DNA from: an uncultured Bacteroidales bacterium
Lineage (GTDB): Bacteria > Bacteroidota > Bacteroidia > Bacteroidales > CAYFUP01
Direction of reading: 5' to 3'
DNA: 48,257 nt
Assembly (NCBI GenBank): GCA_964346235.1
Contig: CAYFUP010000002.1
Location: 1 to 48,257, forward strand
Position numbers and translations under genes: made by a program. Each line of letters begins with the position of its first letter. The stretch's first letter is position 1. This document shows positions 4,636 to 48,257 of the stretch, piece after piece. A model generated the notes under the pieces. It saw only the letters and a list, made by a program, of their open reading frames with translations, did not search any database and had not been told where the DNA came from.

Positions 4636-6585
4636 ATGATTGATCAAAATACCATACAGAACATCGTAGAAACCGCCGATATTGTTGAGGTGGTGGGGGA
4701 ATTTGTTAGATTGAAAAAACGGGGCGTCAATTTTACCGGTCTGTGTCCCTTTCATAACGAAAAAACCCCTTCCTTTTCGGTTTCACCCGCCAGGGGCATC
4801 TATAAATGTTTTGGTTGCGGTAAAGGCGGAAATGTGGTGAATTTCATCATGGATCATGAAAACCTTTCCTACCCGGAAGCCTTAAAATATCTGGCCCGGA
4901 AATATCATATCGAGATTGAAGACAAGGAACCCACCCCCGAAGAAATCGAACAAAAAAATGAACGGGAATCCCTGATGGTGGTCACGGAGTTTGCTCAAAA
5001 ATATTTTACAAACCTGCTTCATGAACACGCCCAGGGTAAGGCCATCGGTCTGAGCTACCTGAGGGAAAGGGGATTCCGGGATGAAATCATTGAAAAATTC
5101 CAGCTCGGGTATTGCCTTGATTCCTGGGATGCATTTACCGGGTATGCCAAAAGTCAGGGATACAAAACAAAATACCTGGTCGGGACAGGATTGACCATAG
5201 AAAAGAACAACAAATATTTTGACAGGTTTTCTGGTCGTATCATGTTTCCCATACATGCCGTTTCCGGAAAAATTATTGGTTTTGGGGGCAGAACCCTCAA
5301 AGCCGATAAAAAGACGGCCAAGTATCTGAATTCCCCTGAATCGGAGATTTATCATAAAAGTCAGGTGCTGTACGGACTGTATTTTGCCAAACGGTCCATC
5401 ATGAAAGAGGAAAAGTGCTACCTGGTAGAGGGTTATACGGATGTGATTGCCTTTCATCAGGCCGGAATTGAAAATGTGCTGGCTTCTTCCGGTACTTCGC
5501 TTACGGAAGGACAAATAAGGCTGATTAAAAGGTTTACTGAAAATGTAACCGTTATCTATGACGGGGATGAGGCAGGAATCAAAGCATCTTTGCGGGGCAT
5601 TGACCTGATTCTGAAAGAAGGGCTCAACATAAAAGTGTTGGCCCTGCCTGAAGAGGAGGATCCGGACTCTTTTGCCAAAAAACATGATATGGATTCCTTA
5701 AACGCATATATTGCTGAAAATGAAACTGATTTTATCCATTTCAAAACAAAGCTTTTGCTGGAGGATGCCAGGAAAGACCCGATTCGCCGGGCCAACCTGG
5801 TATCCGATATTGTTCGCTCCATTGCCGTTATTCCCAATACCATAACACGCTCTGTTTATATCAAAGAATGCAGTTCTCTGCTCAATATGGATGAAAAGGT
5901 ATTGTATTATGAATCCAATAAAATCAGAAGGCAGCAATTTGAAAAAGAAAGAAAATGGCAAAAAAATGCACCGTCTTCAGAAAAAAATGAAGCAGCAAAA
6001 AATCAACAGAATGCATTCGAGATAAGGGAAGGATACGACCAGGAAAAAGAATTAATCAGGGTATTACTGACTTATGGCCATAAAAATGTCTCAACACAGA
6101 ATGAAGATACAGGGGAAGAATCCGAGATTACCGTAGCGGATTATATTAAAGATGAAATCCACGGAGATGATCTTGATTTTGAATATGAAATTTTTAAGAA
6201 AATTTTTAAGGCCTATTTTGAGGTGGTTTCTCAAAACGGCTCATTTGACGAAAAAATGCTGATAAACCATTCCGACGAGCAGATTGTCAAATTTATCATT
6301 GATATTTTGAGTCCGAAATACCACCAAAGCAGATTCTGGAAAAGAGGGGGCAATTTTTATGAAACGGAAGAGGACCGTTTTAAGCAGGTGGTTAAGGATA
6401 TCTTGCTGGCATTTAAGCAGGTTAAAATCCAGCACATGCTTCAGGACACCGAAAAGAAGTTGGGAAAAGCCCAGGAGAGCGAACTGGAAGAAGAGATAAA
6501 ACAGTATTTTCACCAATTCAACGCCTTAACCCATCTTAAAATGGAACTTGCAAAGAATCTGGGCTTTCGGACGATACTGAAGTAG
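4636..6585 (+). CDS. dnaG: DNA primase
   Basis: 649 aa. CHC2 zinc finger CPFHNEKTPSFSVSPARGIYKCFGCGKGG. RNA polymerase core. TOPRIM motifs LVEGYTDVIAFHQAG and VIYDGDEAG. Confidence 0.95.
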   Translation: MIDQNTIQNIVETADIVEVVGEFVRLKKRGVNFTGLCPFHNEKTPSFSVSPARGIYKCFGCGKGGNVVNFIMDHENLSYPEALKYLARKYHIEIEDKEPTPEEIEQKNERESLMVVTEFAQKYFTNLLHEHAQGKAIGLSYLRERGFRDEIIEKFQLGYCLDSWDAFTGYAKSQGYKTKYLVGTGLTIEKNNKYFDRFSGRIMFPIHAVSGKIIGFGGRTLKADKKTAKYLNSPESEIYHKSQVLYGLYFAKRSIMKEEKCYLVEGYTDVIAFHQAGIENVLASSGTSLTEGQIRLIKRFTENVTVIYDGDEAGIKASLRGIDLILKEGLNIKVLALPEEEDPDSFAKKHDMDSLNAYIAENETDFIHFKTKLLLEDARKDPIRRANLVSDIVRSIAVIPNTITRSVYIKECSSLLNMDEKVLYYESNKIRRQQFEKERKWQKNAPSSEKNEAAKNQQNAFEIREGYDQEKELIRVLLTYGHKNVSTQNEDTGEESEITVADYIKDEIHGDDLDFEYEIFKKIFKAYFEVVSQNGSFDEKMLINHSDEQIVKFIIDILSPKYHQSRFWKRGGNFYETEEDRFKQVVKDILLAFKQVKIQHMLQDTEKKLGKAQESELEEEIKQYFHQFNALTHLKMELAKNLGFRTILK

Positions 6586-8314
6586 TATCCGAGGCAAGGT
6601 TCCAGGTCTGTTCCAGATCCCAGTTAGCCCGTATCTCCAGTTCCTGCGGATAAAAAATCACCTTTTCCGGTTGAATGCCTTTTATATAATGACCGGTGTC
6701 CCATTTTCCGTTTCCATTTCGGTCAAAAATGGCTTTGAGCCGGTAAGATGCCGCATTCAGATAGGGAAATGATACCTCCCCGTTGCTGGAAATCATATGT
6801 TTTCTTTTTACATTGCTGTTATTGTCTAACAGCTGGATGACCATCGGGCCGGTCACCGACTCGAGTGTTAAAATCAGGTGGCCATAAAAGCTTTCTTCCC
6901 TTACCCTGATTTGAGCGTCGAGGGTATCAGTGGTTTGTCCGTAAATATCAGTGATGGCATTGGGAAAAACATCCAAGCGGTAAGTTTTTTCAGGTTCCCA
7001 TTCATAATCCACCTTCGCCCTTTTTAATTGATCCTCGCGTTTGATCATGCCAAAAGGGACCAGGTAAAACAGGGTATCATCTTTCTCATAAAGCCTCATG
7101 TAAGTGGTATCAATATGTCCGATGGGATGTTCCGACTCAATCATTACCGAGTCCCCCAAATCAAGAAAACTTCCACTGCCGGTGCGCAGGTTCACAGGAA
7201 GCAGTGTCTGTTCTTTTTTACCTGCTTTATCTTCCTGCACGCTGTATGAACGCATCATGAGGGTATCGGCACGGGTTTGCAGACTGTCATATTTGTCCAG
7301 ATACGTATATTCCATCCTGAGGGAGAAGGTATCACTTTTGATAAGCGTTGAATCGGTGATCCAATAGGTTAAGGAATCATTGCGGTGACTGACTTCCCTG
7401 ATAGCCCAATCTTTTTCATGGTCGATGTGGAGCGGCTCCACGAGAAGCGGCCGAACGAGCGGTTCATTGAACGCAAAGGATAGCAAATGCCTTTCTAACC
7501 TGTCGGATGTTTTGATATATTGATTGATTTCTTCTTCATTAAATAAATAGTAATTGAGTTCAGGGGCTTTGTAAACCATGTTGATTTTTTTTAAAGAAGG
7601 CCCTGAAGCTGCAGTATCTTCGGTCACGCTCGAATCCAGACGGAAAGTAATAAGCGTATCAGCAAAAGCAATCCGCTCATTGGGCATGTCATACATATAA
7701 TTCCTGTTCTTGTCATCCAGCAGAAATACTTTAAAGGTATCATGCCTTATATTGTTGATGGCAAAATGCCCTTCATCGTTGGTGCGTGAAAGGTAATAAG
7801 GTACCTGTTTATAAGGAATTGAATCTTCCAGCTCTTCATAAAGCATGGCATAGACGTTTTCCAGCGGTTTATTGTCAAAAGCATTGAGCACCTTTCCTTC
7901 AAAGCTCAGGGAGTCGATATAGGGACCCGTGGAGAAGACGAATTCAAAGTTCTCCATCGGATTTCCCTCATTGTTGTCCACTATGGCATCACTGAAATTA
8001 AATGAATAAGTGGTGTTTTCCCGGAGGGTATCTATAATTTTGAGCTCAATTTCTTTTCCTTTGTTAACGATCCTGGGCTGATTTTCCATGGGGGGTGAAA
8101 TGAGCAGTTTATTGTTGACGTCCTGTAACTGAATGAATTCGTCAAATTCAATTTCTATTTCATCGCCTTCAAAATTTCTGGCATAGTTAGCCGGTTCGCT
8201 TTCAACCACCCTGGGAGGCACCTCATCCACCGGCCCCCCGCTTGGCGGGACAATCTTTGCACAGCCGGTTAACATAATGAGTGTTAATAGAATCAGGAAG
8301 GTAGAACGGTACAT
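6536..8314 (-). CDS. Ig-like (Big_5/SbsA-type) domain lipoprotein, conserved hypothetical
   Basis: 592 aa. The lipoprotein signal is LTLIMLTGC|AK. It is followed by PPSGGPVDEVPPRVVESEPANYARNFEGDEIEIEFDEFI, the usual N-terminus of this Bacteroidota lipoprotein family. The 3' end overlaps dnaG convergently by 50 nt. Confidence 0.7.
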   Translation of the reverse strand: MYRSTFLILLTLIMLTGCAKIVPPSGGPVDEVPPRVVESEPANYARNFEGDEIEIEFDEFIQLQDVNNKLLISPPMENQPRIVNKGKEIELKIIDTLRENTTYSFNFSDAIVDNNEGNPMENFEFVFSTGPYIDSLSFEGKVLNAFDNKPLENVYAMLYEELEDSIPYKQVPYYLSRTNDEGHFAINNIRHDTFKVFLLDDKNRNYMYDMPNERIAFADTLITFRLDSSVTEDTAASGPSLKKINMVYKAPELNYYLFNEEEINQYIKTSDRLERHLLSFAFNEPLVRPLLVEPLHIDHEKDWAIREVSHRNDSLTYWITDSTLIKSDTFSLRMEYTYLDKYDSLQTRADTLMMRSYSVQEDKAGKKEQTLLPVNLRTGSGSFLDLGDSVMIESEHPIGHIDTTYMRLYEKDDTLFYLVPFGMIKREDQLKRAKVDYEWEPEKTYRLDVFPNAITDIYGQTTDTLDAQIRVREESFYGHLILTLESVTGPMVIQLLDNNSNVKRKHMISSNGEVSFPYLNAASYRLKAIFDRNGNGKWDTGHYIKGIQPEKVIFYPQELEIRANWDLEQTWNLASDTTSVSSESPDSLQVPF

Positions 8315-8342
8315 TTGGTTTTATTAATGAGTTTGATAGTTA

Positions 8343-8495
8343 GTGGTTCTGAGAAAACGTCAATAACTGCGTGATGCTCACCTTAAGCACCAGTCATTTA
8401 CGACCAGTAAACTCCGGGCACTTAAGGCTTGCATGCCTTCTTATTGACGCCTTCTTAGAACCACTTTAGCATAATTTGTTGGTTTTCTTAGTGAC
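8343..8495 (-). repeat. Structured intergenic repeat, copy 1 (122-nt hairpin 8343-8464 plus ~30-nt conserved tail)
   Basis: 111/122 identical to 48023-48144, and the tail is also conserved. It has a 24-bp basal stem, a 12-bp middle stem and a 6-bp apical stem. Pairing is near-perfect only for the minus-strand transcript (G.U pairs). Confidence 0.85.
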
Positions 8496-8595
8496 AATAA
8501 TTAGAGAACGCATATTAGCTGTGAATATTATCTGTCCATTGGGGATTTGGGAGTTCGCCTGATTTCATTATAAACCCCTTATCAGCCATTGCCGG

Positions 8596-8725
8596 CAACA
8601 AAGCTGTGAAATGAGCTACGAGTTCGCTGCAGGCAAAAGAGCTTGTGAGTTCGCTGAAGGAAAACGAGCATGCAGATTCACTGAAGTCATACGAATTCAG
8701 GACTTCGCTGCAGGACAATAAGTCT
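8596..8725 (+). repeat. Array of four 27-nt purine-rich units (GAGTTCGCTGNAGGNAAAAGAGC-like), copy A
   Basis: TTCGCTGCAGG, TTCGCTGAAGG, TTCACTGAAGT and TTCGCTGCAGG occur at 8623, 8650, 8677 and 8704, an exact 27-nt period. It is homologous to 34976-35140. Confidence 0.8.
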
Positions 8726-8848
8726 CCCGTGTCACTCCATGACACTAAAGGCATCATGAACAAATTAATTTTCGAATTAATTCAAAAAGCATTATAATAA
8801 TATTCATATCTTTTATAGTTTTGGCCATAAAAATAATCAATAAATATT

Positions 8849-12832: not shown

Positions 12833-12967
12833 GATCTTTGCGAAATCTCTTCAAATTTAATTTATTCTTTTATACTTTTAAAACTTAACTGCACTATTTA
12901 AAATTTAGAACACTTTGAATGTATAGATTGTTATATCAAAAGCAAACCAACAAAAAACAAAAATATT

Positions 12968-13717: not shown

Positions 13718-13779
13718 GTCGCTTGCAGCAATGCAATAAACCCCTCTTAACGTTTTCTTAGAATCACGAAACAATTTTC

Positions 13780-18223: not shown

Positions 18224-21200
18224 ATGCCATCAAATTATAAGTCATATATACTGTTAATCATTGGGTTCTTCAGCTCACTGGCCCTGCATGCCATCGATGT
18301 ATCACTCGATACCACCAGTGTTACCTGTAACGGAAGCAATGACGGAATCGTTCATACGATGGTCACCAATGACAACAATCCTCCCTATGATTATTACCTG
18401 TATGATGTATTTCCAGGCGGCAATCCGGTAGATTCCATTAAGTCCACCCCTTCCAAAGACACTGCGTTTCATGACTTATCGGGGGACAAATACACGGTTT
18501 TGGTAAGTAATTCAAATGATGACATTGCGGCCAGGAGCATTCAGCTGAGGGAGCCTGACCCGTTATCCATTGACAGTTTGCCATGTATTCAGCGACTTAC
18601 GTGTTTTTATGGCAGTGATGCCAAACTTCAGGCAAATGTCTCAGGTGGTAATGGGGGCAACACTTATCGTTGGTACAAAGATACCCTGGGTTCCTACCAA
18701 CTCATCAACCAGGACAGTGCGGTACTGACCAATGTTCATCAATCCAATTATGTTGTGGCGGTTGAAGATAAGAATGGTTGCACGGATTCCAGCGAAGTAA
18801 TCAATTTCATCAGTTTTTTTCCGGATTATGCCGACAGCATTCCGGATGCACAAATCCAGCAGGATTCGGTGAATTCCACCGATGCCTGCCAGGGTCAGAA
18901 CAACGGGGAAATCCGAATCTATTTCAGCGGGGGAACCGGCAGTCTGGAATACGCCGTGGTGCGAGACGGAAGCGGAGATACCACCAACTGGGGATCCAGC
19001 AATACCATATCCGGTTTGCAACCGGGTACCTACCGGGTATATGTAAGGGATGCCTTTGGTTGTATTAAAAAAAAAGACGATGGGGATGTGGTTATTGGAG
19101 AAATACCGGCACCGGCTGTTGATGCGGGAAGTGATGAAGAAACCTGTGAAGATACCCAATTTGATTTATCGGGTTCAGCCACCGTACCCACTGCTTCCAA
19201 TTACAGTTCATTGAGCTGGAATGACGGGGGAACCGGTGGTTCCTTTGATGACAACACAAGCCTGACTCCCGTTTATACTCCGCCTGCTGATTTTTCCGGC
19301 AGCATCACGCTTACCTTGACCGCTACCGGCAATGCGAATTGCAATCCGGTCAGCGATAACATGGAATTGACCGTTACTGCGAGACCTGCTGCTGATGCAG
19401 GAAGTGACGAACAAACCTGCAAAAATACTGATTTCGATTTATCCAATGCTTCAACCGAACCCACTGCCTCGGATTATAGCAGTTTAAGCTGGGATGACGG
19501 GGGTGCCGGAGGAAGTTTTGATGACAACACCTTATTAACGCCCGTATATACCCCGCCAAACGGATTTACCGGGGACATCACCCTGACGCTTACCGCTGAT
19601 GGCAGCGGAAGTTGCAGTCAGGTAAACGACATCATGACACTCACCGTGGTAGAAAGTCCCATAGCCAATGCTGGCAGCAATGAAGAAACCTGTGAGGACA
19701 CCCCGTTTGATTTGTCTGCTTCAACGACTGTTCCTTCTGCTTCCAATTACAGTTCTTTGTCATGGGATGACGGGGGTGCCGGGGGATCCTTTGATGATGC
19801 GACAAGCTTAACTCCGGTATATACGCCACCCACTGGATTTACCGGAACCATCACCTTAACCCTTACTGCCAATGGCAATGCCAATTGCAGTCCGGATACG
19901 GATGACATGGATTTAACCGTGACAGCCAAACCTTCGGTTGATGCGGGAAGTGATGAACAAACCTGTCAGGATGCTTCCCTGAACCTGGCCGGGTCCAGTT
20001 CCATACCCACCGCTTCCAATTATAGTTCTTTAACATGGAGTGACGGAGGAGCGGGTGGTTCATTCGATGATGAAACATTATTAAGACCTGTTTATACACC
20101 TCCCAACGGGTTCACCGGCGATATTGCCTTAACATTGACTGCCGATGGCAACGGCTCGTGTGATCCGGTGAATGATGATATGACCCTCGCAGTACTGGAA
20201 GGTCCGGCTGCAAATGCAGGTTCCGATGAAGAAACCTGTCGCGACATTGCCGTTGATTTGGGCAATTCAGCCGTGGTGCCCACTGCTTCGAACTATAACA
20301 GTCTCAGCTGGGATGATGATGGAACCGGAGGAACATTTGATGACAATACCAATTTAACACCTGTTTATACGCCACCCAATGGTTTTTCCGGTACCATCAC
20401 CTTGATCTTAACTGCCAATGGCGGGGCAAATTGCGATCCGGCAAAAGATACCATGGAACTGACAGTGCATGCTTCTCCGATTGCCAATGCAGGGAGCAAT
20501 GAAGAAACATGTGAAGACCTCCCTTTTGATTTATCGGGTTCTACCTCCGTGCCCACAGCTTCTAATTACAGTTCATTGAGCTGGAGTGACGGAGGAGCCG
20601 GAGGTTCATTCGATGACAACACCGGTATTACTCCCGTTTATACTCCTCCTGCCGGGGTTTCCGGAAATATTACGCTGACATTAACAGCCTTTGGAAATGC
20701 CAGTTGCAATTCCACGAGTGATGATATGGAGCTGACGGTCACCGCACAACCTGCTGCAGACGCCGGCAGCAATGAGCAAACCTGCATCAACAGCGGTTTT
20801 GACCTGACCACCTCCGGAACCCTTCCCTCAGCATCCAATTATAGTTCACTAAGCTGGAGTGACGGTGGAGCGGGTGGTACATTTGATGATGAAACCACTT
20901 TAAGGCCGGTATATACCCCTCCCAATGGTTTTACCGGGAATATTACACTAACACTGACTGCCAGTGGAAATGGTTCCTGCAGTCCGGTGACAGATAACAT
21001 GACTTTAAACGTAGTACAGGGTCCGACTGCCAATGCCGGCAGCGATGAAGAAACCTGCCAGGATGTTGCCATGGACCTGTCCACTTCCTTTACCGTTCCA
21101 ACGGCTTCTAATTACAGTTCTTTGTATTGGAGCGACGGAGGGACAGGAGGTTCTTTTGATGACAGTACCCGTCTGACTCCGGTCTATACCCCACCTGCCG

Positions 21201-24200
21201 GCTTCTCTGGTACCCTTACATTAACATTGACCGTTAATGGGAATGCCAACTGCAGTCCGGCTACCGATGCGATGGACCTGGCTGTTACCGCCAAGCCTTC
21301 CGTTGATGCGGGTAGCGATGAACAGACCTGTCAGGGGGTGGCTTTTGATCTGTCCGGTTCAGGCACCGTTCCGACCGCATCCGATTATGGCTCTCTATCA
21401 TGGGATGACGGTGGAATCGGAGGTTCCTTTGATGACAATACCGCATTGACCCCTACCTATACCCCACCAGCTGCTTATACCGGAAATATTACATTGTCAT
21501 TGACTGCCAGCGGAAATGGTTCCTGTGCTGCAGTGAATGATGATATGACCCTGAATGTATTAGCGGGTCCGACTGCCAATGCCGGCAGTGACGAGCAAAC
21601 CTGTCAGGATATAAGCTTTGATTTATCTGCATCCTCTGTTGTGCCTTCGGCTTCCAATTACAGTTCTTTAGTCTGGACTGACGGAGGGGCAGGCGGTTCA
21701 TTCAGCGATGAGACAACCTTAACACCAGTCTATACCCCACCCATTGGGTTTTCCGGAAATATAACCCTTACCCTGACCGCCAATGGAAACGCCAATTGCG
21801 GTCCGGTTTCAGATGATATGATTTTATCTGTTGAAGCAGCTCCTTCAGCCAATGCCGGTAGCGATGAAGAAACCTGCCAGGATGCCTCCTTTGATTTATC
21901 AGGTTCCGCAACGGTACCGACCGCTTCAAATTACAGTTCATTAAGCTGGAGTGACGAAGGGGCAGGTGGCTCATTTGATGATAACAGCACCCTGACTCCG
22001 GTCTATACTCCTCCGGCAGGCTTTACCGGAACCCTTACACTCACACTGACAGCCAACGGCAATGCCAGTTGCAATCCGGTTACTGACGCGATGGAGCTTA
22101 CCGTTACACCTCAACCGCAAGCCGATGCCGGTAGCGATGAAGAAACCTGTAAAGACACTCCATTTGACATATCTGCATCAGCATCAGTTCCGACTGCATC
22201 AGAATATAGCTCTTTAAGCTGGAATGATGACGGAACCGGCGGGGCTTTCGATGACAACACCCTGTTAACGCCAACTTATACTCCTCCGGCAGGCTTTACC
22301 GGCAGCATTGAACTGATCCTCGTCGCCAATGGAAACGGTTCCTGTGCCCCGGTAAGCGATACCATGACCCTGACTGTTTTGGAAGAACCTGCAGCCAATG
22401 CCGGCAGCGATGAAGAAACCTGCCAGGCTGCTTCATTTGATCTTTCAGCTTCCGCTACCAATCCAACAGCATCAGACTACAGCGCTTTAACCTGGAGTGA
22501 TGATGGTGCCGGCGGTTCATTTACGGGGGGAACAACGCTGACCCCGGTTTACACTCCGCCTGCAGGTTTCAGCGGAACCATAAACCTTATTCTCACGGCC
22601 ACTGGCAATGCCAACTGCAGTCCGGCCCGTGATACCATGGATTTGACAGTAACCGCTCAACCCATTGCTGACGCCGGCAGTGATGAGCAAACCTGCCAAA
22701 ATAATGATTTTGATTTGGCAAATTCAGCAAGCGTTCCATCAGCATCCAATTATAGCAGCCTGAGTTGGAGTGATGATGGCGCCGGCGGTTCATTTGTCAA
22801 TGGATCAACACTTACACCGGTTTATACGCCACCTGTGGGTTTTACCGGTGAAATCGATCTCATCCTGACGGCCAATGGCAATGGATCTTGTGGTCCTGTG
22901 AATGACACCATGAATCTGACCATATTGGAAGGGCCTTCAGCCAATGCCGGCAGCGATGAAGAAACTTGTCAGGATGTATCCTTTGACCTGTCAGCATCCG
23001 CCACGGTTCCCGCGGCTTCGAATTATAGTGGCCTGATATGGGATGATGATGGCGCCGGTGGTTCCTTTAATGATAATACCAGTCTCACCCCAACCTACAC
23101 CCCACCTGTAGGTTTTACAGGAAATATTTCCCTGATCATTATGGCCAATGGCAATGCCAACTGCAGTCCTGCGACGGATACGATGTTGCTGACGGTCAAT
23201 GCGGCACCGACAGCAGATGCCGGAAGTAATGAAGCGACCTGTCAGAATGTGCCGTTTGACCTGTCAACCGGTGCCACTGTTCCCAGCGCTTCGAATTATA
23301 GCGCTTTATCATGGAATGATGGAGGTGAAGGAGGTTCTTTTGACGATAATACAGCAATACATCCTGTATATACACCACCGGTTGATTATACAGGCACCAT
23401 TATCCTGACCCTTACAGCAGATGGCAATGCCAATTGCAACCCGGTGAGTGATAACATGCAGCTGACGGTCAATGCATCCCCCATTTCCGAGGCAGGCAAT
23501 GACACCAGCATTTGTTACGGGGACAGTGTACAGATACTAACCGCCGACAGTGTCAATGCAAGTACCATCGGATGGACCAGCTCAGGGGACGGAACTTTTA
23601 ATGATTCATCATTGATAAACCCATACTATAATCCAGGCATCAACGATCTGAACAGCGGCAGTGTTAAATTATATTTGCATGTCAACGGAAGGGGAACATG
23701 TTCAGGGATTGAAGTCATCGACTCCATGAACCTTGCCATCCCTGCTCAGTTAAAGGCCTCCGTCGGAGCACCCAGTCCCTTCGCCAACAATATTTCTGCC
23801 AATACCCGGATTTCGGTATCCTTTAATGTGGAAGGACATCACTACATCCAGGATGTAAGCTATTACCTGGTTGCGCCGGATGGCACTAAAATTAAAATGA
23901 AAGAACAACCGGCCGATCCAAATTGCGGCATAGATCCGTTTTTTGGATTCAGACTTCCCTGTAACACCGCCAAGAATGCAGATATTACCTTCACTACGGA
24001 AGCCAATCCCAATGATACGCTCACTGTATGCGACTGCTCCGGAGGGTATAACGAAGATCTTTCCGGCACGTTTGCCATCACGGGGGACTGGACGCCGCTT
24101 TACGGGCAGGATCCCGCAAACGGTAGCTGGGGGATAGAAATAGTGGATAAACAAAACAATGCCCTTGGTCCTGTGGAAGAACTGACCGGTTCCATCATCT

Positions 24201-27200
24201 TCAGAGATACAACGGAAGCAGGGGATACGGTTTCACTGGTGTATGAAAGTTACGGACCAAGAGATATCAATGAAGCCGGCATCACGACTTATACCCTGAG
24301 CCGGGGACTCCGGGTAAGCTGCAACGGTGCCTGTGATGCCGAAGCCATCGTGCAGGCCAGCGGCGGAACGCCTCCTTATGATTTTACCTGGAGTGGCTCG
24401 GAAACCATCAATAATAACGGAGATACCTTATATTTGTGCGCCGGAAATTATACCCTCACCGTCACCGATGCTCTGGGTTGTACCGACATGATTCCGGTGG
24501 AAGTCACCGAACCTGAAGCCCTTATCTTTAAAGGCATCAGCTATACCGATTCCATCTGTGAGTTTTCAAGTGCAGGTGAGATAACGGTTGACAGCGCCGG
24601 CGGCGGAACCGGTAACGTGACCGTATCCATCAACGGGACTGATTTTTATCCGTTACCCCATACATTCAGTAACCTGGGCATTGGGGATCATAGGATTTCA
24701 TTATCGGATGACAATAAATGTATTGAAGACACCATCATCACCATTCACCGTATTGATTCCATGCGGTTCGACCTGGAGGTTACACCGCTTACCTGTGCGG
24801 AAGATTTGGGAAGCATCCTCATCAAAAATATCAGGGGAGGAACCCCTTCCTTGTTCAGCATAGACGATACCCTGCATTTTGAGCCGGACGATGGGTTTGG
24901 TGGTTATACCTTCCAGCAGTTCGGCAATGACAGTGCGCTGTTCTCGGGACTTCCCGGCGACAGCAACTATATTACTGCGATAAAATCAAGCATCGGATGT
25001 GTCACCTACGGGGATACCATTTCGCTCGTAAAACCGGACACCTTGGTATTTGATTCTTTATATTATGATGACAGCATCAAAGTTGAAAACGGCGATACGA
25101 TCAACTTACTCGTGGCCGGTGATAGTGCACAAATAGAAATCTTTGCCCATGGCGGGGCAGGGGAATTGTCCTATTTCCTTGCTGATACCGGGACAGCCAT
25201 CCACGATAGCCTGTTCACAGCGGATTCTGTATTCAACCTGCATGCAGGGGTTTACTACACGGCGGTGTCCGACTCCAATGGTTGTCAGAAACTGGGTGAC
25301 ACCCTCCTGGTGACCCAACCCGACTCCATCCTGATTGATACGGTCATCACTGAAAATATCCTTTGCCATGGCGATTCGTCCGGAGTAATTCAGATTAGTG
25401 CCAGTGGGGGTACCCTGCCTTTAAGGTATTGGTTGACGGCGGAAGACACAATTTACCGGGGACCGCAATCCGATACGGTTTTCACGGATTTGCCGGCTGA
25501 TACTTTCACAGTCGTGGCGGCTGATACCAATGGATTCACCAATGTCAACGAGACGGTGGTCATCATTTCGCAACCGGATGAGTTGCTCACGGATGATGCT
25601 TTGTTCAACATTACCTGTTTTGGGGCCGGCAATGGACGCATTGAAATAGAACCATCAGGGGGTGCAGCACCCTATGATTATTCCATTGACAGCGCCAATT
25701 CCTATTTTGCGCTGAATCAGACCGGCAGACTGGATACCACCGGTTTACTGCCTGGTACTTATCCGGTGGCGGTCAGGGATACCAATGGCTGTATCAGCTA
25801 TGGAAACAGATTTACCCTTGCTGAACCGGATTCCATTGCCATTGATTCGGTTTATCACAACATGACCAAATATCAGTCCGGCGATACCATTGCCTTTGCC
25901 TGTGCGGGTGAAACTACTGACATGACTATCTTTGCACGAGGTGGTTCCGGAACGTTGGAATACTTCCTCCAGGATACCTCAGTGGCTGTCCAGGATGGAT
26001 TGTTCGCTGAAGATTCTGTGTTTACCGTCGGGGCAGGGGTTTATTACCTGGTGGTCAGGGATTCCAGCAATTGTGAACGATACGGCGATACCATCCCGGT
26101 TGTTGAGCTTTCCGATTCCATCATGGTTCATGATATTTCTGTGAATACCATCCTTTGTCATGGCGACAGCTCGGGAATAATATCCGTTGACTCGGTCACC
26201 GGTGGATGGGGTGGTTATCAGTATTCCCTGGATGGAGTGGATTACCAGGATGATAGCTTGTTTACCGGTCTGCTTGCAGGAAAGCATTATGTGTATGTAA
26301 GGGACAGCATGGGTTGTCTGGCGGTGGACTCCGTGGAAATAAACCAACCCCCCGAACTTGAAATCGATACCATTATTAAAGAAGATATCCGCCTGGATAC
26401 CCTGGGCACCATCATCATAGGCGCAAGTGGCGGCATCAGGCCTTTTGAATATGCTTTGGACGGACCGACTGATTTTGATTTCGGTGCGGATTCTGCATAC
26501 ATCGACACCCTGCTTCCTGGCAAATATGATGTCTTTGTCCGCGATGCCAATGGCTGCCTGGATTCTGCCATCGTACTGATAGTGGGTGATTCCCTGAACG
26601 GGGAAGTCAACATATTGAGCCATGCATTGTGCAACGGAAGCAATGAAGGTTCCCTGGAGATCAACATATTCAATGGGACAGGAATTATTAACTACGCCAT
26701 AGAGGGCATCACCGGTGGGACTGAATACCTGCATGAGGGGACCACGGATGCCAGCTGGCAGCAGGATGGACTGATGGCTGACAGCTATGTGATCACGGTG
26801 GTGGATCAGGAAAACAAGTTATTTACAGATACCGTTGAAATTACCGAACCATCTGCCATTCGGTTCGACAGTGTTGTCACCACCCCGGCAAGCGGTGGAA
26901 ACGGTGGTTCCATCACCATATTTGCCGATGGAGGAACCAAACCATATCAATATTCCATTTATGGCGACACGACTGATAACTACCAGCAGGATTCGTCGAT
27001 GACCGGTTTAAAACCGGGCATCTATTCCGTATTCGTCATGGATACCAATGGCTGTAAGATCGATACATCCGTTACCATCATCAGTGATGACATCCTGGAC
27101 CATAGCATCATAGTAAAGCAGGTGACTTGCTTCGGGGATGAAGACGGGGAGATAGCCATTACACCGGTTAACAATCAGGGAGAAGTGGAATACCGGTTAA

Positions 27201-30200
27201 GCTTTGATTCCAGGAACATCATTTCCTACAGTGAAAATCAAATGGTATTTAACAACCTGGCCCCGAACACTTATGATTTGTTCATGGTCGATACTGCTTA
27301 TAAATATTTTGATACCACCCTAGTCATCAGTCAGCCTTCCGCTCCGGTAACCATCGATTCTGTTCAAAAACAGAATGTGGTAGCGGCCAATCCTGGCGCC
27401 ATCGAGATCTTTGCGCACGGTGGAAGAGGATCCCTGGAATACTCCGTATATGGTGATGTGGACACCGCATACCATTCCGGTTCTCAATTTAATGGGCTTT
27501 CCAGCGGACTGTATGAGGTGTTTGTCAGGGACAGCAATTTATGTTCGGATGATACCCTGGTAACCATCCTCAGCGAGGATACCCTGGATATCAACATAAC
27601 TGTAACTCCGGCACTATGCCATGGCTCAGGCACCGGTACAATTAACCTTGAACCGGTGGATAATGCGGGTGAAGTGACTTATATTTTCTCCGGAGCCATT
27701 CAGGATACCGTCGCCAGTGATACTACGGTGGCCATAACGAACCTTCTTGCCGGGGACTATGGACTGTTTGCCAGGGATACGGCGGGACAGACTTTTGATA
27801 CCTTGATCAGGGTACAGGAACCGGATCAGTTGAATATTGACAACCTGGTGACCGAAGATATGCGCGGCGATACCCTGGGGTCCATTTTTATTGGCGCTTC
27901 AGGGGGAACCAAACCATACCAGTATAAGATTTACAGCGATTCTGCCTATACCTCAGATTCTGCATATGTGGATACCCTGAGACCCGGAATTTATGAAGTA
28001 TTTGTCATGGATGCCAATGGATGCATGGATTCCGTCAAAACCTACATCAGCGGAAGCCGGCAGCTGGATGTAAAAGACACCATCATGAGTCATGTAGCTT
28101 GCCATGGCAGCAATGAGGGATCCATTTTAATGGAGGTGTTTAACGGAATGGGACCTATCGAGTATGCCATTGATGGAACAGATACCCGGTATGAATTTGA
28201 ATCCACCGACAGCACCTGGCAAAAAGATGATCTGTATGCGGATACCTATGTCGTCACCGTTCGGGATGACAGCAATCAGTCATTTATAGATACCCTTATA
28301 ATCACTGAACCGGCTGCCCTGAAGTTTGACAGCATTACAACCATAGCTGCCGATTCGGTCAACAACGGTTCCATGAACCTGTTTGCCGGAGGAGGGATAC
28401 CACCTTATGAATACGCCATCGGCAGGGATTCCCTGTTGCCGTTTGTGGATACTTCCGGGTTTGATAACCTGAAACCCGGCAGGTACAGCGTAATGCTGAG
28501 GGATTCAAACCTTTGCACGAAAGATACCCTGGTCGTCATCCGGGGAGAAGATACCATCCGCACCACCATCTCTGTCAAACATGTCACCTGTTATGCTGAT
28601 GAGGATGGGGCGATTACGGTGATTCCACTAAACAGCAGCGGTGAAGTGGAATACCAGTTGCAGTACGGAAACACCAACATCATTGCATTTGAATCGGATA
28701 CCCAAAGGTTCGAAGCATTGGGGCCTGATGAGTACTATCTGTCCATGGTGGATACGGCCAATAAGTTTTTCGACACCACGCTGACCGTTGGTCGTCCGGA
28801 TGACCCCGTAAGCATAGATTCAGTGGTTCAAAATCAGATAAGCATGGGCATCCTGGATACCATGATGGTGTATGCCCATGGCGGCAGGGGAGATCTGGAT
28901 TACCGGATTGAGAGCGATACATTATCCCGCTCACAAGAAGACTCTGTCTTTACGGGTCTGCCCATCAACATTTATAAAGTATTTGCGGCGGACAGCAATG
29001 GTTGTATGGATTCCGCCCTGGTAAAAGTCAAGACGGATTCTTTGCTGGACATGAACGTGGTTCGCTCGAATGTTACCTGTGCCGGTGGCATGAATGGTGC
29101 TTTCGAATTCACACCTCTGGATAATAACGGTCCTGTTACTTATCGCGTGGTGGCTCAGGTGTTGCCTTTTGATACCACGTATAGCTCAGCGCAACCTTTT
29201 GTACTGGATTCACTGATGGCGGACACTTATGTAATACTGGCATGGGACACCAGCATAGTTCCGAAGATGCTGGATACCACCCTTGTCATTTCTGAACCTG
29301 ATCCCATCAATTACAGCATAACCAAACAAAATGAGTCGAATATAAATCCGGGCAGCGTCACCATTCACGCTACCGGAGGATTGGGCGATCTGGAATATTC
29401 GCTGGACAGCGGAACCGTATTCCGGGATACCAATTATTTTGACGGATTAGCAGCAGGTACTTATCACATGGTCATACGCTCCTCCCTGGATACTTTGTGT
29501 TCTGTCAGGGACAGCATCAACATACTGCAACAACTGGATGTCAATGTGGCCACCCAGCCGGTTGCCTGCCACGAAGCAGGAAACGGTTCGGTAGCAATTA
29601 CCATCACTGACAGCGAAGCCTTGTTGCCCATCCGGTATGTGATCAACGGGGATACCACCGTTTCGAATGCCATGTCTCACAGCACGGATACCCTGGAAGG
29701 GGGAATCTATCAGATAAATATACTGGACAGCATCAACAGGCGGTTTGATACCTCGATAACGGTCATAGAACCCGACCCGGTCAATATTTCCAGCTTTGAA
29801 GTCAACGATGTATTATGTCATGGGGATACCACAGGCAGCGTTTCGGTGACTGCCATTTCCGGTGGTTGGTTTGTATATGAGTATTCCCTGAATGGCATGA
29901 ATTACCAGGATTCTTCGGCTTTCTACGGACTGCCGGCAGGGGAATATACTTTATTTGCCAGGGATTCTGCCGGATGTGTTGCAAATCCCAGGGATTTTGA
30001 AATTCAGGAACCCGCTGAAATTGAATTAAACATCACCACCAGGGATGCCATGGGTCCTGATTCATTAGGCGTTATCGACATCGCTTCCACCGGAGGCACC
30101 GGTTCTCATCAGACCAGGATACATGAAGATTCGGCTTTCACGGACAGTAATCTTTATGAAGGGCTGCAACCGGGATACTACGATGTGGGAGTGTTGGATG

Positions 30201-33103: not shown

Positions 33104-33106
33104 AAC

Positions 33107-34027
33107 ATGAAGCAGGTTAGAATTTACATATCAGCATGTGTGATATTGTTAACCGGAATGATGGGGGCCAGGGCACAACAAATGCCGCAGTTTACCCAAT
33201 ACATGATGAACAGCTATGTCATCAATCCCGCCGTGGCCGGAACATACAATCACTACAAGATTAAGCTGAACGGCAGGTACCAGTGGCTGGGATTTCCCGA
33301 ATCAGCGCCGCAGGATTTATTTTTCAGTGTATATGGTCCTTCTGAAACCCAGGATATGGGGTGGGGGGGACTGGTTTATTCCGATGTGACCGGTCCGACC
33401 AGCAGGCTTGGTATGCTCGGGTCCTATGCCTACAATGTGAGTCTCCATGAAGATATGAGACTCTCTATGGGGGCTTCCCTTGGCGTGAACCAATATAAGA
33501 TAAGCTTTTCACAGTTAAATTCCGGAACTAATATTTATGATCCGAAGTTGCCCAGTGTCGATCAGGCTGCCTGGGTTCCGGATGCCAACATAGGATTATA
33601 TTTGTGGTCTACTTCCTATTATGCGGGTTTCTCAGCGCATCAGCTTATCAGGAACAAACTCGACCTGGTGGAGGACATCGACTCGGATACCATTTCGGGA
33701 ATCAACCGGTTGAAAGTGCATTTTTACCTGACCGGGGGATATGCGTTTATTTTGAGTGACGAATATATTCTAGAAACCTTTGCCATGGTCAAAGGACTCA
33801 CTCCTGTGCCCATACAATGGGAGCTGAGTGCCAAGATGACTTATAACAGAATGTTTTGGGGAGGAATATCTTACAGACACAAAGATGCTTTATCTTTTCT
33901 TACCGGCATATCATATGAGAAATACGGACTGGGAATATCTTATGATTTCTTGTTATCGGAAATAAGAAAATGGGGGACCGGATCGGTCGAAATCATGATA
34001 AGCTACCGCTTTGATGATATTAAATAA
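33107..34027 (+). CDS. PorP/SprF family type IX secretion system membrane protein
   Basis: 306 aa. A signal peptide is followed by AQQMPQFTQYMMNSYVINPAVAGT, the family hallmark. The sequence looks like a beta-barrel throughout. It starts 3 nt after the giant ORF stop. Confidence 0.9.
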   Translation: MKQVRIYISACVILLTGMMGARAQQMPQFTQYMMNSYVINPAVAGTYNHYKIKLNGRYQWLGFPESAPQDLFFSVYGPSETQDMGWGGLVYSDVTGPTSRLGMLGSYAYNVSLHEDMRLSMGASLGVNQYKISFSQLNSGTNIYDPKLPSVDQAAWVPDANIGLYLWSTSYYAGFSAHQLIRNKLDLVEDIDSDTISGINRLKVHFYLTGGYAFILSDEYILETFAMVKGLTPVPIQWELSAKMTYNRMFWGGISYRHKDALSFLTGISYEKYGLGISYDFLLSEIRKWGTGSVEIMISYRFDDIK

Positions 34028-34975: not shown

Positions 34976-35140
34976 CAACAAAGATATGAACCAAGCTTGT
35001 GAGCTAGCCGGAGGAAAAAGAGCTTACGGGCTAAGCCAAAGGCAAAAGAGTATAGAAATTCGCCGGAGGCAAATGAGCCAGCGAATTAGTCGAGGCAAAA
35101 GAACGTATAAAGTTGCCAAAGGTAAAGAAACATCAGGGAC
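34976..35140 (+). repeat. Array of five ~27-nt purine-rich units, copy B (homologous to 8596-8725)
   Basis: AGG cores are at 35012, 35040, 35067, 35093 and 35120, with spacings of 28, 27, 26 and 27. 34994-35023 matches 8640-8669 at 25/30. The lead-in CAACAAAG..TGAA is shared. Confidence 0.8.
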
Positions 35141-35290
35141 TGCATACGAATGGAAACCCGGAAGTTAATGTTAAAACCAGAAATATCATTGAAATACAAC
35201 AGATTCATTAAGCGTTTATGTCGTATTAAGGGAGTAGAAAGCAGATGCCAGCCCTTCCCACCGGTTTTTCTGAGAAAACTCTCAAAAATC

Positions 35291-43629: not shown

Positions 43630-46095
43630 ATGGTTAGCTATAATACAGGATCACTTGTCAGAATAATTGATGCCAGACTGTATGGTGATGAAAACAAGGA
43701 AATCGATAATATTTCTATTGACAGCCGCAAGATAATCAATCCTGGCTCTGCTTTGTTTTTTGCCATTCGTGGGCCAAACCGGGATGGACACCGGTTCATT
43801 CATGAAAGTCACCAGCTGGGCGTCAGGGCATTCGTGGTGGATACACTGCCTGAGGACCATCAGCGATATGCAGAAACCACTTTCCTGGTGGTGGATGATG
43901 CCATCAAAGCCGTTCAACAGCTGGCAGCTTACCACCGGAAACAATTCAGATATCCTGTAATCGCTATCACCGGGAGCAACGGAAAGACAATAGTGAAGGA
44001 GTGGTTAAATCAACTGCTGGAGCCGGAAAAAAGCATTGTGAGAAGCCCGAAAAGCTATAATTCACAGATAGGCGTGCCATTGAGCCTGTTCCTGATGCAT
44101 GAATCGGCTGATATGGCAATCATAGAGGCCGGCATTTCTTTGAAGGGTGAAATGGAAAAACTGGAGCAAATGATTAAACCTGATACCGGCATCATCACCA
44201 ATATTGGGGAAGCACATCAGGAAAATTTCTCCGGATATGATGAAAAAACTCACGAAAAGATCAAGCTGTTTTCAGGGGTAGAAACCATTCTTTATTGCAG
44301 GGATTATGATGCCATTCACCAGGCCATCAAAAGGAAGTACCCGGACAAGCATGTTTTTAGCTGGTCAACCGAAAGAAATGCAGATGTCATCATTAAAAAG
44401 ATTGAAAAAGCCGCGGGCAGTGCGAAGATAAAATATGCTTTTCACAATAAGAAAGCCTCCATTGTTATCCCTTTCTCTGACAGGGCTTCGGTTGAAAATG
44501 CCATTCATTGCCTGGTTTATATGCTGTATTCGAGATACGACCCTTCCACCATCAAAAAAAGAATGAAAGTCCTTGGCCCTGTAGCCATGCGCCTGGAAAT
44601 AAAACAGGGCATCAACGATTCTGTCATCATCAATGACAGTTATAACTCGGATCTGAATTCATTGTCCATCGCCATTGATTTTCTGAACCAGCAATCCAGG
44701 CTTGAGAAGAAGACCCTTATATTGTCCGATATCCTGCAAAGCGGAATGGATGAGCCTCATCTGTACAGAAAGGTCAGTGAAATCGTGCAGCAAAAAAAAG
44801 TACACCGGATCATTGGCATAGGCAGCGCCTTAAAGAAGAATGCGGCTCTCTTCACCGGAGATGCCAGGTTTTATGAGTCCACCGATGCATTCATTCAGCA
44901 TTATAATTTTGAGCAAATCGGTGGTGAAGCCATTTTATTGAAAGGGGCCAGGCCATTCAGGTTTGAGCGGATATCCAGAAGGCTTGAGAACCTGGCCCAC
45001 AGGACATTGCTGGAGGTAAACCTCAATGCCCTTTTGTACAACCTGAATTATTTTCGTTCCGGCCTGAATCCCGGTACCCGCATTATGGTCATGGTGAAAG
45101 CATTCTCTTATGGAAGCGGATTATATGAGGTGGCCTCCTTTTTGCAATACCACAGGGTAGATTATCTTGGAGTGGCTTTTGTGGATGAAGGAGTGACCCT
45201 GAGAAAATCCGGCATCAAACTGCCTGTCATGGTCATGCAGCCCGAAGAAGGAAGCTTCGATGTCATGATTGAGCATGGAATGGAACCTGAAATTTACAGT
45301 TTCATCATCCTTGAACAGTTTATTAATGCATTGAAGCATAAAAAAATACAGGAATACCCGGTTCATATCAAGGTGGATACCGGCATGCACCGTTTGGGTT
45401 TTATGAATCATCAGGTGGATGAATTAATAAGAAGACTCAGGGAAGTCCCGCAGATAAAAGTCCAATCTGTCTTCTCCCACCTGGCTGCGAGCGATGAAGA
45501 AGTGCATGACCAATTTACCGGAAGTCAGTTTGAGGCATTTGAGAAAATCAAAAAGGTGTTTCGAGCATCATTTGATCATAAGATCATGTATCACATTCTT
45601 AATTCGGCCGGCACTGAACGTTTTCCTGAATATCAACATGATATGGTGCGACTGGGAATCGGCCTATACGGGGTGAGCTGTCTGCACGATATCTCTCTCA
45701 AAAACATAAGCACACTGAAAAGCCGGATAATACAGATTAAGACGGTACATGCAGGGGAGACTGTGGGTTATGGAAGAAAAGGATTGGCCGGTTCGGAAAA
45801 GCAGATTGCCGTCGTTCCCATTGGCTATGCAGATGGGTTGAACCGCCACCTGAGCAATGGCAAAGGATATTTCATGGTCAGAAACCAAAAAGCCCCCATT
45901 TTTGGGAACATCTGTATGGATGTGACGATGATTGATGTGACCGGATTGAACGCTCTTGCAGGAGAAGAAGTGATCATCTTCGGGGCGGGTTTTTCCATTG
46001 AAGAAATGGCGAAGAAACTGAATACCATCCCATATGAGATTCTTACCGGCATATCCCAACGGGTGAAACGCGTATATTACCAGGATGAGCAATAA
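43630..46095 (+). CDS. Bifunctional Mur-ligase (MurF-like) / alanine racemase fusion
   Basis: 821 aa. The N-terminal Mur ligase part has AITGSNGKT and ITNIGEAH. The C-terminal Alr part has the PLP-lysine motif MVMVKAFSYGSG, DTGMHRLGF and GYADG. This fusion is common in Bacteroidota. Confidence 0.9.
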   Translation: MVSYNTGSLVRIIDARLYGDENKEIDNISIDSRKIINPGSALFFAIRGPNRDGHRFIHESHQLGVRAFVVDTLPEDHQRYAETTFLVVDDAIKAVQQLAAYHRKQFRYPVIAITGSNGKTIVKEWLNQLLEPEKSIVRSPKSYNSQIGVPLSLFLMHESADMAIIEAGISLKGEMEKLEQMIKPDTGIITNIGEAHQENFSGYDEKTHEKIKLFSGVETILYCRDYDAIHQAIKRKYPDKHVFSWSTERNADVIIKKIEKAAGSAKIKYAFHNKKASIVIPFSDRASVENAIHCLVYMLYSRYDPSTIKKRMKVLGPVAMRLEIKQGINDSVIINDSYNSDLNSLSIAIDFLNQQSRLEKKTLILSDILQSGMDEPHLYRKVSEIVQQKKVHRIIGIGSALKKNAALFTGDARFYESTDAFIQHYNFEQIGGEAILLKGARPFRFERISRRLENLAHRTLLEVNLNALLYNLNYFRSGLNPGTRIMVMVKAFSYGSGLYEVASFLQYHRVDYLGVAFVDEGVTLRKSGIKLPVMVMQPEEGSFDVMIEHGMEPEIYSFIILEQFINALKHKKIQEYPVHIKVDTGMHRLGFMNHQVDELIRRLREVPQIKVQSVFSHLAASDEEVHDQFTGSQFEAFEKIKKVFRASFDHKIMYHILNSAGTERFPEYQHDMVRLGIGLYGVSCLHDISLKNISTLKSRIIQIKTVHAGETVGYGRKGLAGSEKQIAVVPIGYADGLNRHLSNGKGYFMVRNQKAPIFGNICMDVTMIDVTGLNALAGEEVIIFGAGFSIEEMAKKLNTIPYEILTGISQRVKRVYYQDEQ

Positions 46096-47162: not shown

Positions 47163-48011
47163 TTATTTTAATTCAGCAATGGCACATGATAAATAAAACT
47201 TGATTTCCTTAAGAAAAGCTTTTATTTTAAATACTGTGCTTTTTTGGTTATGAGGAGGCAGCAGGATGCGATGCATCACATGACTTTTCAGTCTGATCCA
47301 GCGCCTCGTTCTTTTGCCTGAAACCGTATCTACGATGGAACCCAAATCAATGCTGTGAACTTCTTTGTCAAGTTTCCACAATCTTTTATTAATGACCCTG
47401 GTTGACATACCCGCAGCAGGGATCACCACTTCCACCTTGTCCACGGCTTCCATGACTTTTTGCCACCAATGATCAATTTCCCAGTAAGAATTCCGTGATG
47501 GCACCTCCACGTAGTAATCCACCGGACCGATTAATTTTTCAATGTCATGTTTTGGTATGCATCCGATAAAGAGCTTTTTTTTAGGACGGATAAAATTATC
47601 CAGGAAACTGATCATATCCATGTATTTGTAAATGGAATAATAATGGGTAAACCAGGCGCTTTCAAATACCATTTTGTCTTCATACCCAAAACGGTCTAAC
47701 AAAAAATTTAACATGCGGTCGTTTTTCCGGTAAGGTTTCATAAAACCTTTATACATGCCTTTTTCAGCAGGATAGTTAACGGCAAGTCCTTTTAAGTAAG
47801 CCGCATCACTGATTTCAAAAGATTCAACCATTTCTTTTTGCAGTTCAGGATGAAAGTCATGGTTTTGCTGACTTAATCCCATCATAATATATATATCACC
47901 ATCTCCAAACCGGGAATAGAATACTTTCTTTTCTTTTTCAAGAAGCCTGCATAAAGTATCAAAGGTTTCTCCGGTGGATTTTGTTGCTATTTTTCCCTGT
48001 GTATTGTTCAT
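47163..48011 (-). CDS. Hypothetical protein, possibly a GT-D / DUF1792-like glycosyltransferase
   Basis: 282 aa. YSRFGDGDIYIMMG resembles the RFGDGE motif of DUF1792-type enzymes. Nothing else is recognisable. The ATG lies 11 nt from hairpin repeat copy 2. Confidence 0.35.
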   Translation of the reverse strand: MNNTQGKIATKSTGETFDTLCRLLEKEKKVFYSRFGDGDIYIMMGLSQQNHDFHPELQKEMVESFEISDAAYLKGLAVNYPAEKGMYKGFMKPYRKNDRMLNFLLDRFGYEDKMVFESAWFTHYYSIYKYMDMISFLDNFIRPKKKLFIGCIPKHDIEKLIGPVDYYVEVPSRNSYWEIDHWWQKVMEAVDKVEVVIPAAGMSTRVINKRLWKLDKEVHSIDLGSIVDTVSGKRTRRWIRLKSHVMHRILLPPHNQKSTVFKIKAFLKEIKFYLSCAIAELK

Positions 48012-48022
48012 GATGCCTAATT

Positions 48023-48177
48023 GGTGGCTCTAAGAAAACGTCAATAACTGCGTTGTGCTCACCTTAAGCACCAGTCATTTACGATCAGTAAACTCCTGGC
48101 ACTTAAGGCTCGCATGCCTTGTTCTTGACGCCTTCCCAGAACCACTTTAGAATAATATGTTCGTTTTCTTAATGTCA
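48023..48177 (-). repeat. Structured intergenic repeat, copy 2 (hairpin 48023-48144 plus conserved tail)
   Basis: It has the same length and architecture as 8343-8495, with 11 substitutions in the 122-nt hairpin. The basal stem pairs as minus-strand RNA with 18 Watson-Crick pairs, 5 G.U and 1 mismatch. Confidence 0.85.
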
Positions 48178-48257
48178 CTATTTATCAGTTAAACCATTTG
48201 ATTTTCATCTGTGATAAATTTTATGTTAAACCATTGTATTTCAAATAAATAATAAAT

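Follow-up and report, generated by a model that had tools for sequence, protein, structure and literature searches.

Bacterial MITEs, defined by a shared set of features (Delihas, 2008; PMC2229807; for general properties see also Snyder et al., 2009; PMC2649163), include several families of short intergenic repeats with long inverted repeats. The Correia elements of Neisseria (CREE/NEMIS), for example, are non-coding, measure ~105-155 bp and carry terminal inverted repeats of ~24-26 bp; they are inserted beside genes and co-transcribed, their long RNA stem-loop is reported to be an RNase III substrate, and promoter-like hexamers are found at their ends (PMC2229807, PMC2649163). The ERIC/IRU repeats of enterobacteria are imperfect palindromes of ~127 bp in transcribed intergenic regions, whose RNA stem-loop has an orientation-dependent effect on the stability of the flanking mRNA (PMC2229807). 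YPAL/RU-2 of Yersinia, a mobile repeat of ~168 bp, makes target duplications and has inverted repeats that lie inside the element rather than strictly at its ends; a comparison of empty and filled sites led to the inference that it moved recently (PMC2229807). Within the Bacteroidota, non-autonomous intergenic repeats have been described as BrickBuilt/MITE-PgRS of Porphyromonas gingivalis and as a MITE of Cardinium (PMC4596501, PMC9769881).

Here, we describe a folded repeat in a 48,257-nt stretch of DNA from an uncultured Bacteroidales bacterium (contig CAYFUP010000002.1 of assembly GCA_964346235.1), referred to as the window. A previous sequence-only reading had noted two copies of a ~155-nt element, whose hairpin folds properly only as minus-strand RNA, and had compared it to Correia- and ERIC-type MITEs. 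The repeat is non-coding and smaller than ~200 bp, has terminal inverted repeats and a target-site duplication, occurs in dispersed copies at sites that are filled in one lineage and empty in another, and is predicted to form a long stem-loop, which places it among the bacterial MITEs (PMC2229807). The best explanation as a whole is therefore a MITE-type mobile element that is moved in trans and carries a hairpin favouring one strand; we assign this reading a probability of roughly 0.78.

The regions 8337-8503 and 48018-48184 are 88% identical across 167 nt, and the two occurrences indeed represent the same element. Its extent had been given as 8343-8495 and 48023-48177, and needs a small correction: between flanking 7-nt repeats, the unit proper comprises 154 bp (8344-8497 in copy 1 and 48025-48178 in copy 2). 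A third full copy from a sister lineage, R4, likewise measures exactly 154 bp inside its 7-nt repeats. The features relevant for the following are:

2466-2472, unstranded: empty target TATTTAG in the window, in the context AAC TATTTAG CGGG; the site of R4 in the sister lineage
6536-8314, minus strand: gene for a Big_5-domain lipoprotein of 592 aa with lipobox LTGC; its ATG lies 28 nt from the copy 1 hairpin
8337-8343, unstranded: left flank of copy 1, TAGTTAG, the target-site duplication on the hairpin side; the empty site of the sister lineage has a single 7-mer
8343-8464, minus strand: copy 1 hairpin, 122 nt
8344-8497, minus strand: 154-bp unit proper of copy 1, in which a tail of 33 nt follows the hairpin
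8465-8497, minus strand: copy 1 tail, the outer part of which, GTTTTCTTAGTGACAA (plus strand), is the second terminal inverted repeat
8498-8504, unstranded: right flank of copy 1, TAATTAG, a 6/7 match to 8337-8343
8444-8472 (plus strand) and 8497-8468 (minus strand): sigma-70-like hexamer pairs of copy 1
12889-12901, unstranded: probable last remnant of an old copy, CTGCAC + TATTTAA, in the GcpE/His_Phos spacer
47163-48011, minus strand: GT-D-fold-like gene of 282 aa (weak Pfam match); its ATG lies 12 nt from the copy 2 hairpin
48018-48024, unstranded: left flank of copy 2, TAATTGG, 7-nt repeat
48025-48178, minus strand: copy 2 element proper, 154 bp (hairpin 48024-48145, tail 48146-48178)
48125-48153 (plus strand) and 48178-48149 (minus strand): sigma-70-like hexamer pairs of copy 2
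48179-48185, unstranded: right flank of copy 2, TATTTAT, a 4/7 match to 48018-48024
Sister-lineage contig L033, 8288-8441 (also in L034): R4, full copy with flanks TATTTAG/TATTTAG, a perfect duplication; its hairpin spans L033 8287-8408
Sister-lineage contig L033, ~8385-8415: sigma-70-like hexamer pairs of R4

The flanks of the three full copies start with TA and yield a target-duplication consensus of 7 AT-rich bp, TAWTTAG, while the element proper starts with TGG and ends with CAA, CAC or CTC. The terminal inverted repeats, of the KTGKYWCTRAGAAAAC type and ~16-23 nt long, are imperfect, including their very tips; in copy 2, the arms 48018-48040 and 48162-48184 are 78% complementary over 23 nt. 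The motif GTTTTCTYAGNNNCAC is present at both ends of both window copies (7 matches versus 0.1 expected), which implies that what had been called a conserved tail consists of a second terminal repeat and a linker of 16-17 nt. With a GC content of 42%, the element is about equal to the window. It is non-coding: stop codons occur in most frames, and its open frames had no protein match among 5.8 billion sequences. A search for further copies via spurious ORFs, i.e., with a concatenated six-frame peptide query in protein space, returned one chance-level match.

Most of the element body is a 122-nt imperfect palindrome, in which the mismatches between the arms are almost all transitions that give G.U pairs on one strand. 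The hairpins of copies 1 and 2 are identical at 111 of 122 positions, and their predicted stems agree with the three-stem architecture proposed before, with 23-24 bp in the basal stem, 12-14 bp in the middle stem around CCUUAAG, and 6 bp (GUUUAC/GUAAAU) in the apical stem, which carries a 5-nt loop. Recounting also reproduced the pairing reported for copy 1, which as minus-strand RNA forms 41 Watson-Crick and 6 G.U pairs with a single A.C mismatch (positions 9/114); copy 2 forms 39 Watson-Crick and 9 G.U pairs. In plus-strand RNA, the wobble positions of both copies become mismatches. The RNA minimum free energy (MFE) is accordingly lower for the minus strand than for the plus strand, at -63.7 versus -48.8 kcal/mol in copy 1 and -68.4 versus -41.0 kcal/mol in copy 2, with z-scores of -5.8 to -10.9 against dinucleotide shuffles for both strands of both copies. 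The claim of better folding on one strand extends to R4, which reaches -54.9 kcal/mol on the well-folding strand and -35.2 kcal/mol on the complement, and which has 7 G.U pairs on the former and 0 on the latter. Across the three full copies, the well-folding strand thus has a predicted MFE of -55 to -68 kcal/mol (z around -10). The CTTAAG contained in both arms was considered as a restriction or methylation site, an idea that was rejected because CTTAAG is not depleted in the window (12 observed, 14 expected).

Judged by its protein homologues, the organism of the window belongs to the Bacteroidales/Bacteroidota. It is represented in independent assemblies, namely JGI 3300012002 (99.9% identity over 18 kb), the ENA microbial-mat assemblies ERZ922771 and ERZ922774, and Logan ERR1878606. 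Copy 2 is identical across three independently assembled contigs (L009, L011, L031), and the element is therefore no assembly artefact. Through cluster members of the window proteins, a sister lineage was identified in ENA samples of the ERZ107597xx series (ERZ10759729/38/44/92/99) and Logan samples of the ERR62907xx series (ERR6290775-82); its genes share ~93% nucleotide identity with the window. At the spacer between Lgt and the lipoprotein gene (site 1), the window has copy 1, while in the sister lineage the spacer measures 150 nt and the site is cleanly empty in four assemblies (contigs L012, L026, L027, L028). The lipoprotein of the sister lineage is 91% identical at the protein level, with the next-nearest homologues at only ~42%. 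Conversely, the window has an empty target 1 nt past the LptF/LptG stop (site 4), where the sister lineage carries R4, 3 nt past that stop. Upstream of the GT-D-like gene (site 2), opposite copy 2, the sister lineage retains the tail together with 16 nt from the beginning of the hairpin, and the remainder of the hairpin is deleted between two AGGC microhomologies. In the GcpE/His_Phos spacer (site 3), it retains the tail and half of the hairpin, and only ~13 nt are left in the window. These comparisons demonstrate that the element has moved since the two sister lineages split, and that it decays by internal deletion. Since a remnant is found at site 2 of the sister lineage, the insertion of copy 2 is older than the split; the match of its flanks at only four of seven positions likewise marks copy 2, by its sequence, as an older insertion.

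Besides copies 1 and 2, the family comprises R4 and two or three decayed copies in the sister lineage and the window. Three full and two or three decayed copies were thus found in ~125 kb from two lineages. Scaled up, a whole genome would hold roughly a hundred, but this number, like any statement on orientation across the genome or on the preferred target, is extrapolated from this amount of sequence. An additional 19 kb of related sequence held no copy. Several assembly contigs end inside the element (L010, L011, L035, L037), as expected of a multi-copy repeat. Searches in other collections revealed no relatives: the pattern CCTTAAGYRCC-N20-30-GGYRCTTAAGG matched 8 unrelated palindromes in GTDB species genomes (Halomonas and others) and would miss R4-like copies, a fully conserved 3'-arm pattern gave 6 chance matches in JGI metagenome contigs, a collection that evidently does not include samples holding this organism, scans of IMG/VR viral contigs yielded no related sequence, and BLAST against plasmids and phages returned nothing related. 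Given the strictness of the genome pattern and the composition of the metagenome collection, the family may be wider than seen here. In line with the sequence-only reading, which had recognised no named RNA family in it, the element corresponds to none: Rfam produced 0 hits at gathering thresholds for the entire window, and only chance-level hits in permissive searches with all three full copies.

Some further matches in the window were considered as parts of the family. Two 16-mers resembling the terminal inverted repeats (35264-35279 and 45193-45208) look like chance rather than element ends. A solo terminal-repeat motif, GTTTTCTTAGAATCAC, lies at 13752-13767 on the plus strand between the convergent His_Phos and TrpS genes, at a spot where the sister lineage has 72 nt extra, in which similar words recur in scrambled form; the motif is at best what is left of an old copy, or else a chance match.

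The region also contains other repeats. A second dispersed family with a period of 27 nt occurs at 8535-8775 (repeats at 8604-8732), at 34985-35140 and at ~8630-8822 of L019; its first occurrence, of minisatellite type, adjoins copy 1 within an insertion of ~240 nt that is absent from the sister lineage. Another copy of the 27-nt repeat has been called as a 'gene' in the sister lineage, with a length that varies between 106 and 70 aa among samples, which looks like copy-number variation of the minisatellite. A third dispersed family of short repeats, termed X (~85-100 nt, with copies 73-86% identical to each other), is found at 1-85 and 18983-19067 of L041, and hence at both ends of this 19-kb contig, as well as at 1189-1288 of L033, 2203-2302 of L034 and 14989-15036 of L020. 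Repeat X is probably the reason why the assemblies of the window, L009 and L031 all stop at the same place, ~128 nt upstream of copy 2. At the opposite end, where the contig starts, positions 1-123 of the window form a tandem array of 7-nt CAGTAGG-type units. Finally, a giant gene for an SprB/CHU_C-type adhesin (~4959 aa in the sister lineage) spans ~18500-34000 and contains 16 tandem 273-nt repeats (19122-23516), with a GC content of 0.48-0.50, above that of the remaining window.

The position of copy 1 directly before a lipoprotein gene, with 28 nt between hairpin and ATG (8314), is as described earlier, and in both window copies the strand that folds well is also the one that is sense for the downstream gene. 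The more general proposal that this strand coincides with the coding strand of the adjacent gene holds for copies 1 and 2, but not for R4, which is antisense to both neighbouring genes; a rule of sense-strand leader position can therefore not be derived. At site 3, the well-folding strand is directed toward GcpE, yet the element lies upstream of the TAnnTTTG box of this gene. This -7 box of the Bacteroidota precedes Lgt, DnaG, GcpE and TrpS in this genome, and was found neither on either strand of the element nor between the element and the next gene upstream; a search of the element for terminators was negative as well. A perfect TAnnTTTG box, TACATTTG, is located at 8310-8317 on the plus strand, over the start codon of the lipoprotein gene and directed into the element. 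The sister lineage has TACACTTG at this place, and the box is probably due to chance.

How the strand asymmetry of the hairpin is to be understood is the main point on which explanations diverge. The RNA folds of the two strands differ by 15-27 kcal/mol in all three full copies, and 96.5% of the cells over the three copies pair on the well-folding strand, compared to 81.9% on the other. The hairpin of R4 differs from those of copies 1 and 2 at 14-15 of 122 positions, and as R4 is an independent insertion, its asymmetry implies a family trait; the G.U bias noted in the first two copies thus has a wider reach. One interpretation is that the fold of this strand is kept by selection as a single-stranded nucleic acid, most likely RNA, which we rate just short of an even chance. 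The other regards the MITE as neutral and its hairpin as no more than a palindrome in DNA, with selection on no single-stranded form and with a G.U bias that results from chance and shared descent or from a strand-specific mutation bias; this, too, is a serious contender, at rather less than even odds. Single transitions that read as G.U number ~11 for the well-folding strand, compared to 1-4 for its complement, and the helix-only count of 11:1 corresponds to a binomial p = 0.006, provided that the events are independent. However, six of the 11 are shared by descent, and the five copy-specific ones alone amount to 5:1 (p = 0.22). The ratios also weaken to 6:2, 9:3 and 7:0 in an unbiased arm-versus-arm alignment that includes the poorly palindromic internal loops, and covariation, a test proposed in the sequence-only reading, did not reach significance in an alignment of three sequences. 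In two of five copies the hairpin is gone with no visible consequence, and the antisense position of R4 means that selection on host-gene transcripts cannot explain its asymmetry, unless the changes arose in a source copy. Neutral decay, on the other hand, does not predict that the 3' arm (in the well-folding sense) is much better conserved than the 5' arm (5/59 versus 13/58 variable sites, p ~0.03 with three copies), nor does it readily account for the recurrence of the asymmetry in an independently inserted copy or for the compensatory change from C-G to U-A at pair 7/116 of R4. Moreover, the plus strand of the window has a positive GC skew in 11 of 12 4-kb bins, so that a replication-linked C-to-T bias of leading and lagging strands would predict an asymmetry in the opposite direction.

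Three further explanations assign the key role to something other than a MITE hairpin, the first of them to single-stranded DNA. In a mobile element of the IS200/IS605-type PATE or REP/RAYT-like kind, recognition of the hairpin would be confined to one of the two DNA strands, and the strand asymmetry as well as a uniform chromosomal orientation would follow from this. The well-folding strand is indeed the minus strand of the window at all four loci (2466, 8344-8497, 12889-12901 and 48025-48178) regardless of gene direction, in line with an asymmetry intrinsic to the element, although four out of four corresponds only to p = 0.125. DNA energy parameters favour the same strand, but only by 2.7-7.8 kcal/mol; the far larger difference under RNA parameters makes RNA a better candidate than single-stranded DNA for the form that matters. 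To our knowledge, HUH single-strand transposition in the IS200/IS605 family involves neither target duplication nor terminal inverted repeats, both of which are clearly present here and contradict membership among PATE or REP/RAYT elements, which have subterminal hairpins and insert 3' of a fixed tetra- or pentanucleotide; a TnpA/RAYT gene was not seen in the loci either, and this explanation is very unlikely. The very stable predicted fold, the sense-strand placement 28 and 12 nt before two start codons, and the retention of tail and start of the 5' arm in both decayed copies would fit an RNA that belongs to the genes it precedes, either a conserved cis-regulatory leader (riboswitch, thermometer or attenuator) or a small RNA with a gene of its own. 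Yet the orthologous position is empty in the sister lineage in spite of a 91% identical lipoprotein, the neighbours are unrelated (lipoprotein, GT-D-like gene, LptF/LptG 3' end, GcpE/His_Phos spacer), and the target duplications, the inverted repeats, the lack of an Rfam match and the search results for promoter box and terminator all speak against it, making it the least probable of the readings weighed here. Empty sites, unrelated neighbour genes, target duplication and inverted repeats contradict an attC-like site in the same way. In a mobile promoter, finally, the outward-reading promoter would matter and the hairpin would be incidental. Sigma-70-like hexamer pairs occur in every copy (plus strand TTGAC(G/A)-17-TAG(A/C)AT, minus strand TTGTCA-18-TATKCT or TATGCT), those of R4 (TTGACA-17-TAGAAT) are directed outward through the tail, genes lie downstream in the plus sense at three of four sites, and the tail is kept in decayed copies. 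On the other side stand the TAnnTTTG boxes that this genome uses, the frequency of promoter-like matches by chance in such AT-rich DNA, and the fact that the hexamers are no better conserved than the remainder of the element. As far as we know, primary sigma factors of the Bacteroidota do not use the TTGACA/TATAAT consensus. The hexamers, which resemble the promoter-like ends of Correia elements, are thus probably irrelevant in this host, and we regard a mobile promoter as decidedly unlikely.

For the preferred reading, a MITE moved in trans, the fixed 7-bp duplication points to a DDE-type transposase, which would act on the element in trans and make 7-bp staggered cuts. The GGTTCT/GGCTCT ends and an AT-rich duplication of 7-8 bp presumably resemble those of the ISL3 family; no transposase gene, with matching ends or otherwise, was found in the window or in the sister-lineage loci examined. 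Insertion would occur into AT-rich spacers, in this genome often directly before start codons. Transcripts that start upstream of copies 1 and 2 would then include a long, near-perfect hairpin at a distance of 28 or 12 nt from the AUG. Such a 5' hairpin might be an RNase III-type substrate or a stabilising stem-loop in the 5' UTRs of these two genes, as the Correia and ERIC elements suggest by analogy (PMC2229807, PMC2649163). A function of the hairpin at the RNA level is in general reasonable but unproven. The wobble pattern, the compensatory pair and the much better conserved 3' arm recur in the antisense copy and belong to the element as it propagates, rather than to the places where it inserts. 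This leads to the idea of a single-stranded product, specific to one strand, that the element either makes or requires. A double-strand-specific RNase might cut an element-encoded, pre-miRNA-like hairpin RNA into a small RNA from the conserved arm, or an RNA or single-stranded DNA intermediate might take part in the element's own mobilisation. Such a product is unlikely.

These results add a documented, recently active MITE family of an uncultured Bacteroidales lineage from microbial-mat metagenomes, with defined boundaries, target site and path of decay, and the presence of the element accounts for the breaks that assemblies of this organism show at its insertion points. A very stable predicted hairpin 12-28 nt before two start codons could alter the expression of a surface lipoprotein and of a polysaccharide-locus gene between close lineages. 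With its strand-specific wobble, the family offers a clean, testable case on the question of whether selection on RNA maintains MITE hairpins; should the pattern hold genome-wide, it would be a useful example, without introducing a new principle.

Compared with the known systems, the likeness to Correia and ERIC noted at the outset stands as far as a MITE-like mobile repeat with empty and filled sites, target duplication and inverted repeats is concerned, and is a likeness of kind, not of membership. The target duplication here comprises 7 bp (TAWTTAG), while that of Correia elements is TA; the host belongs to the Bacteroidales, and its promoters differ. An internal 122-nt palindrome with a one-sided tail takes the place of the simple end-to-end pairing of Correia, and no sequence relationship was seen, the separation from the Correia (CREE/NEMIS) family being based on duplication and host and not on a consensus alignment. 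ERIC differs in sequence, host and target, and its terminal repeats are short, with ~7 bp of contiguous pairing, whereas the element described here has its recent mobility documented by empty and filled sites. The duplications of YPAL vary from 3 to 26 bp, and YPAL is not AT-rich, in contrast to the fixed 7 bp with a consensus found here. Among the MITEs of the same phylum, BrickBuilt, compared here by its description, contains a minisatellite, which is absent from this element. The element is thus new, and the kind of repeat to which it belongs is well known.
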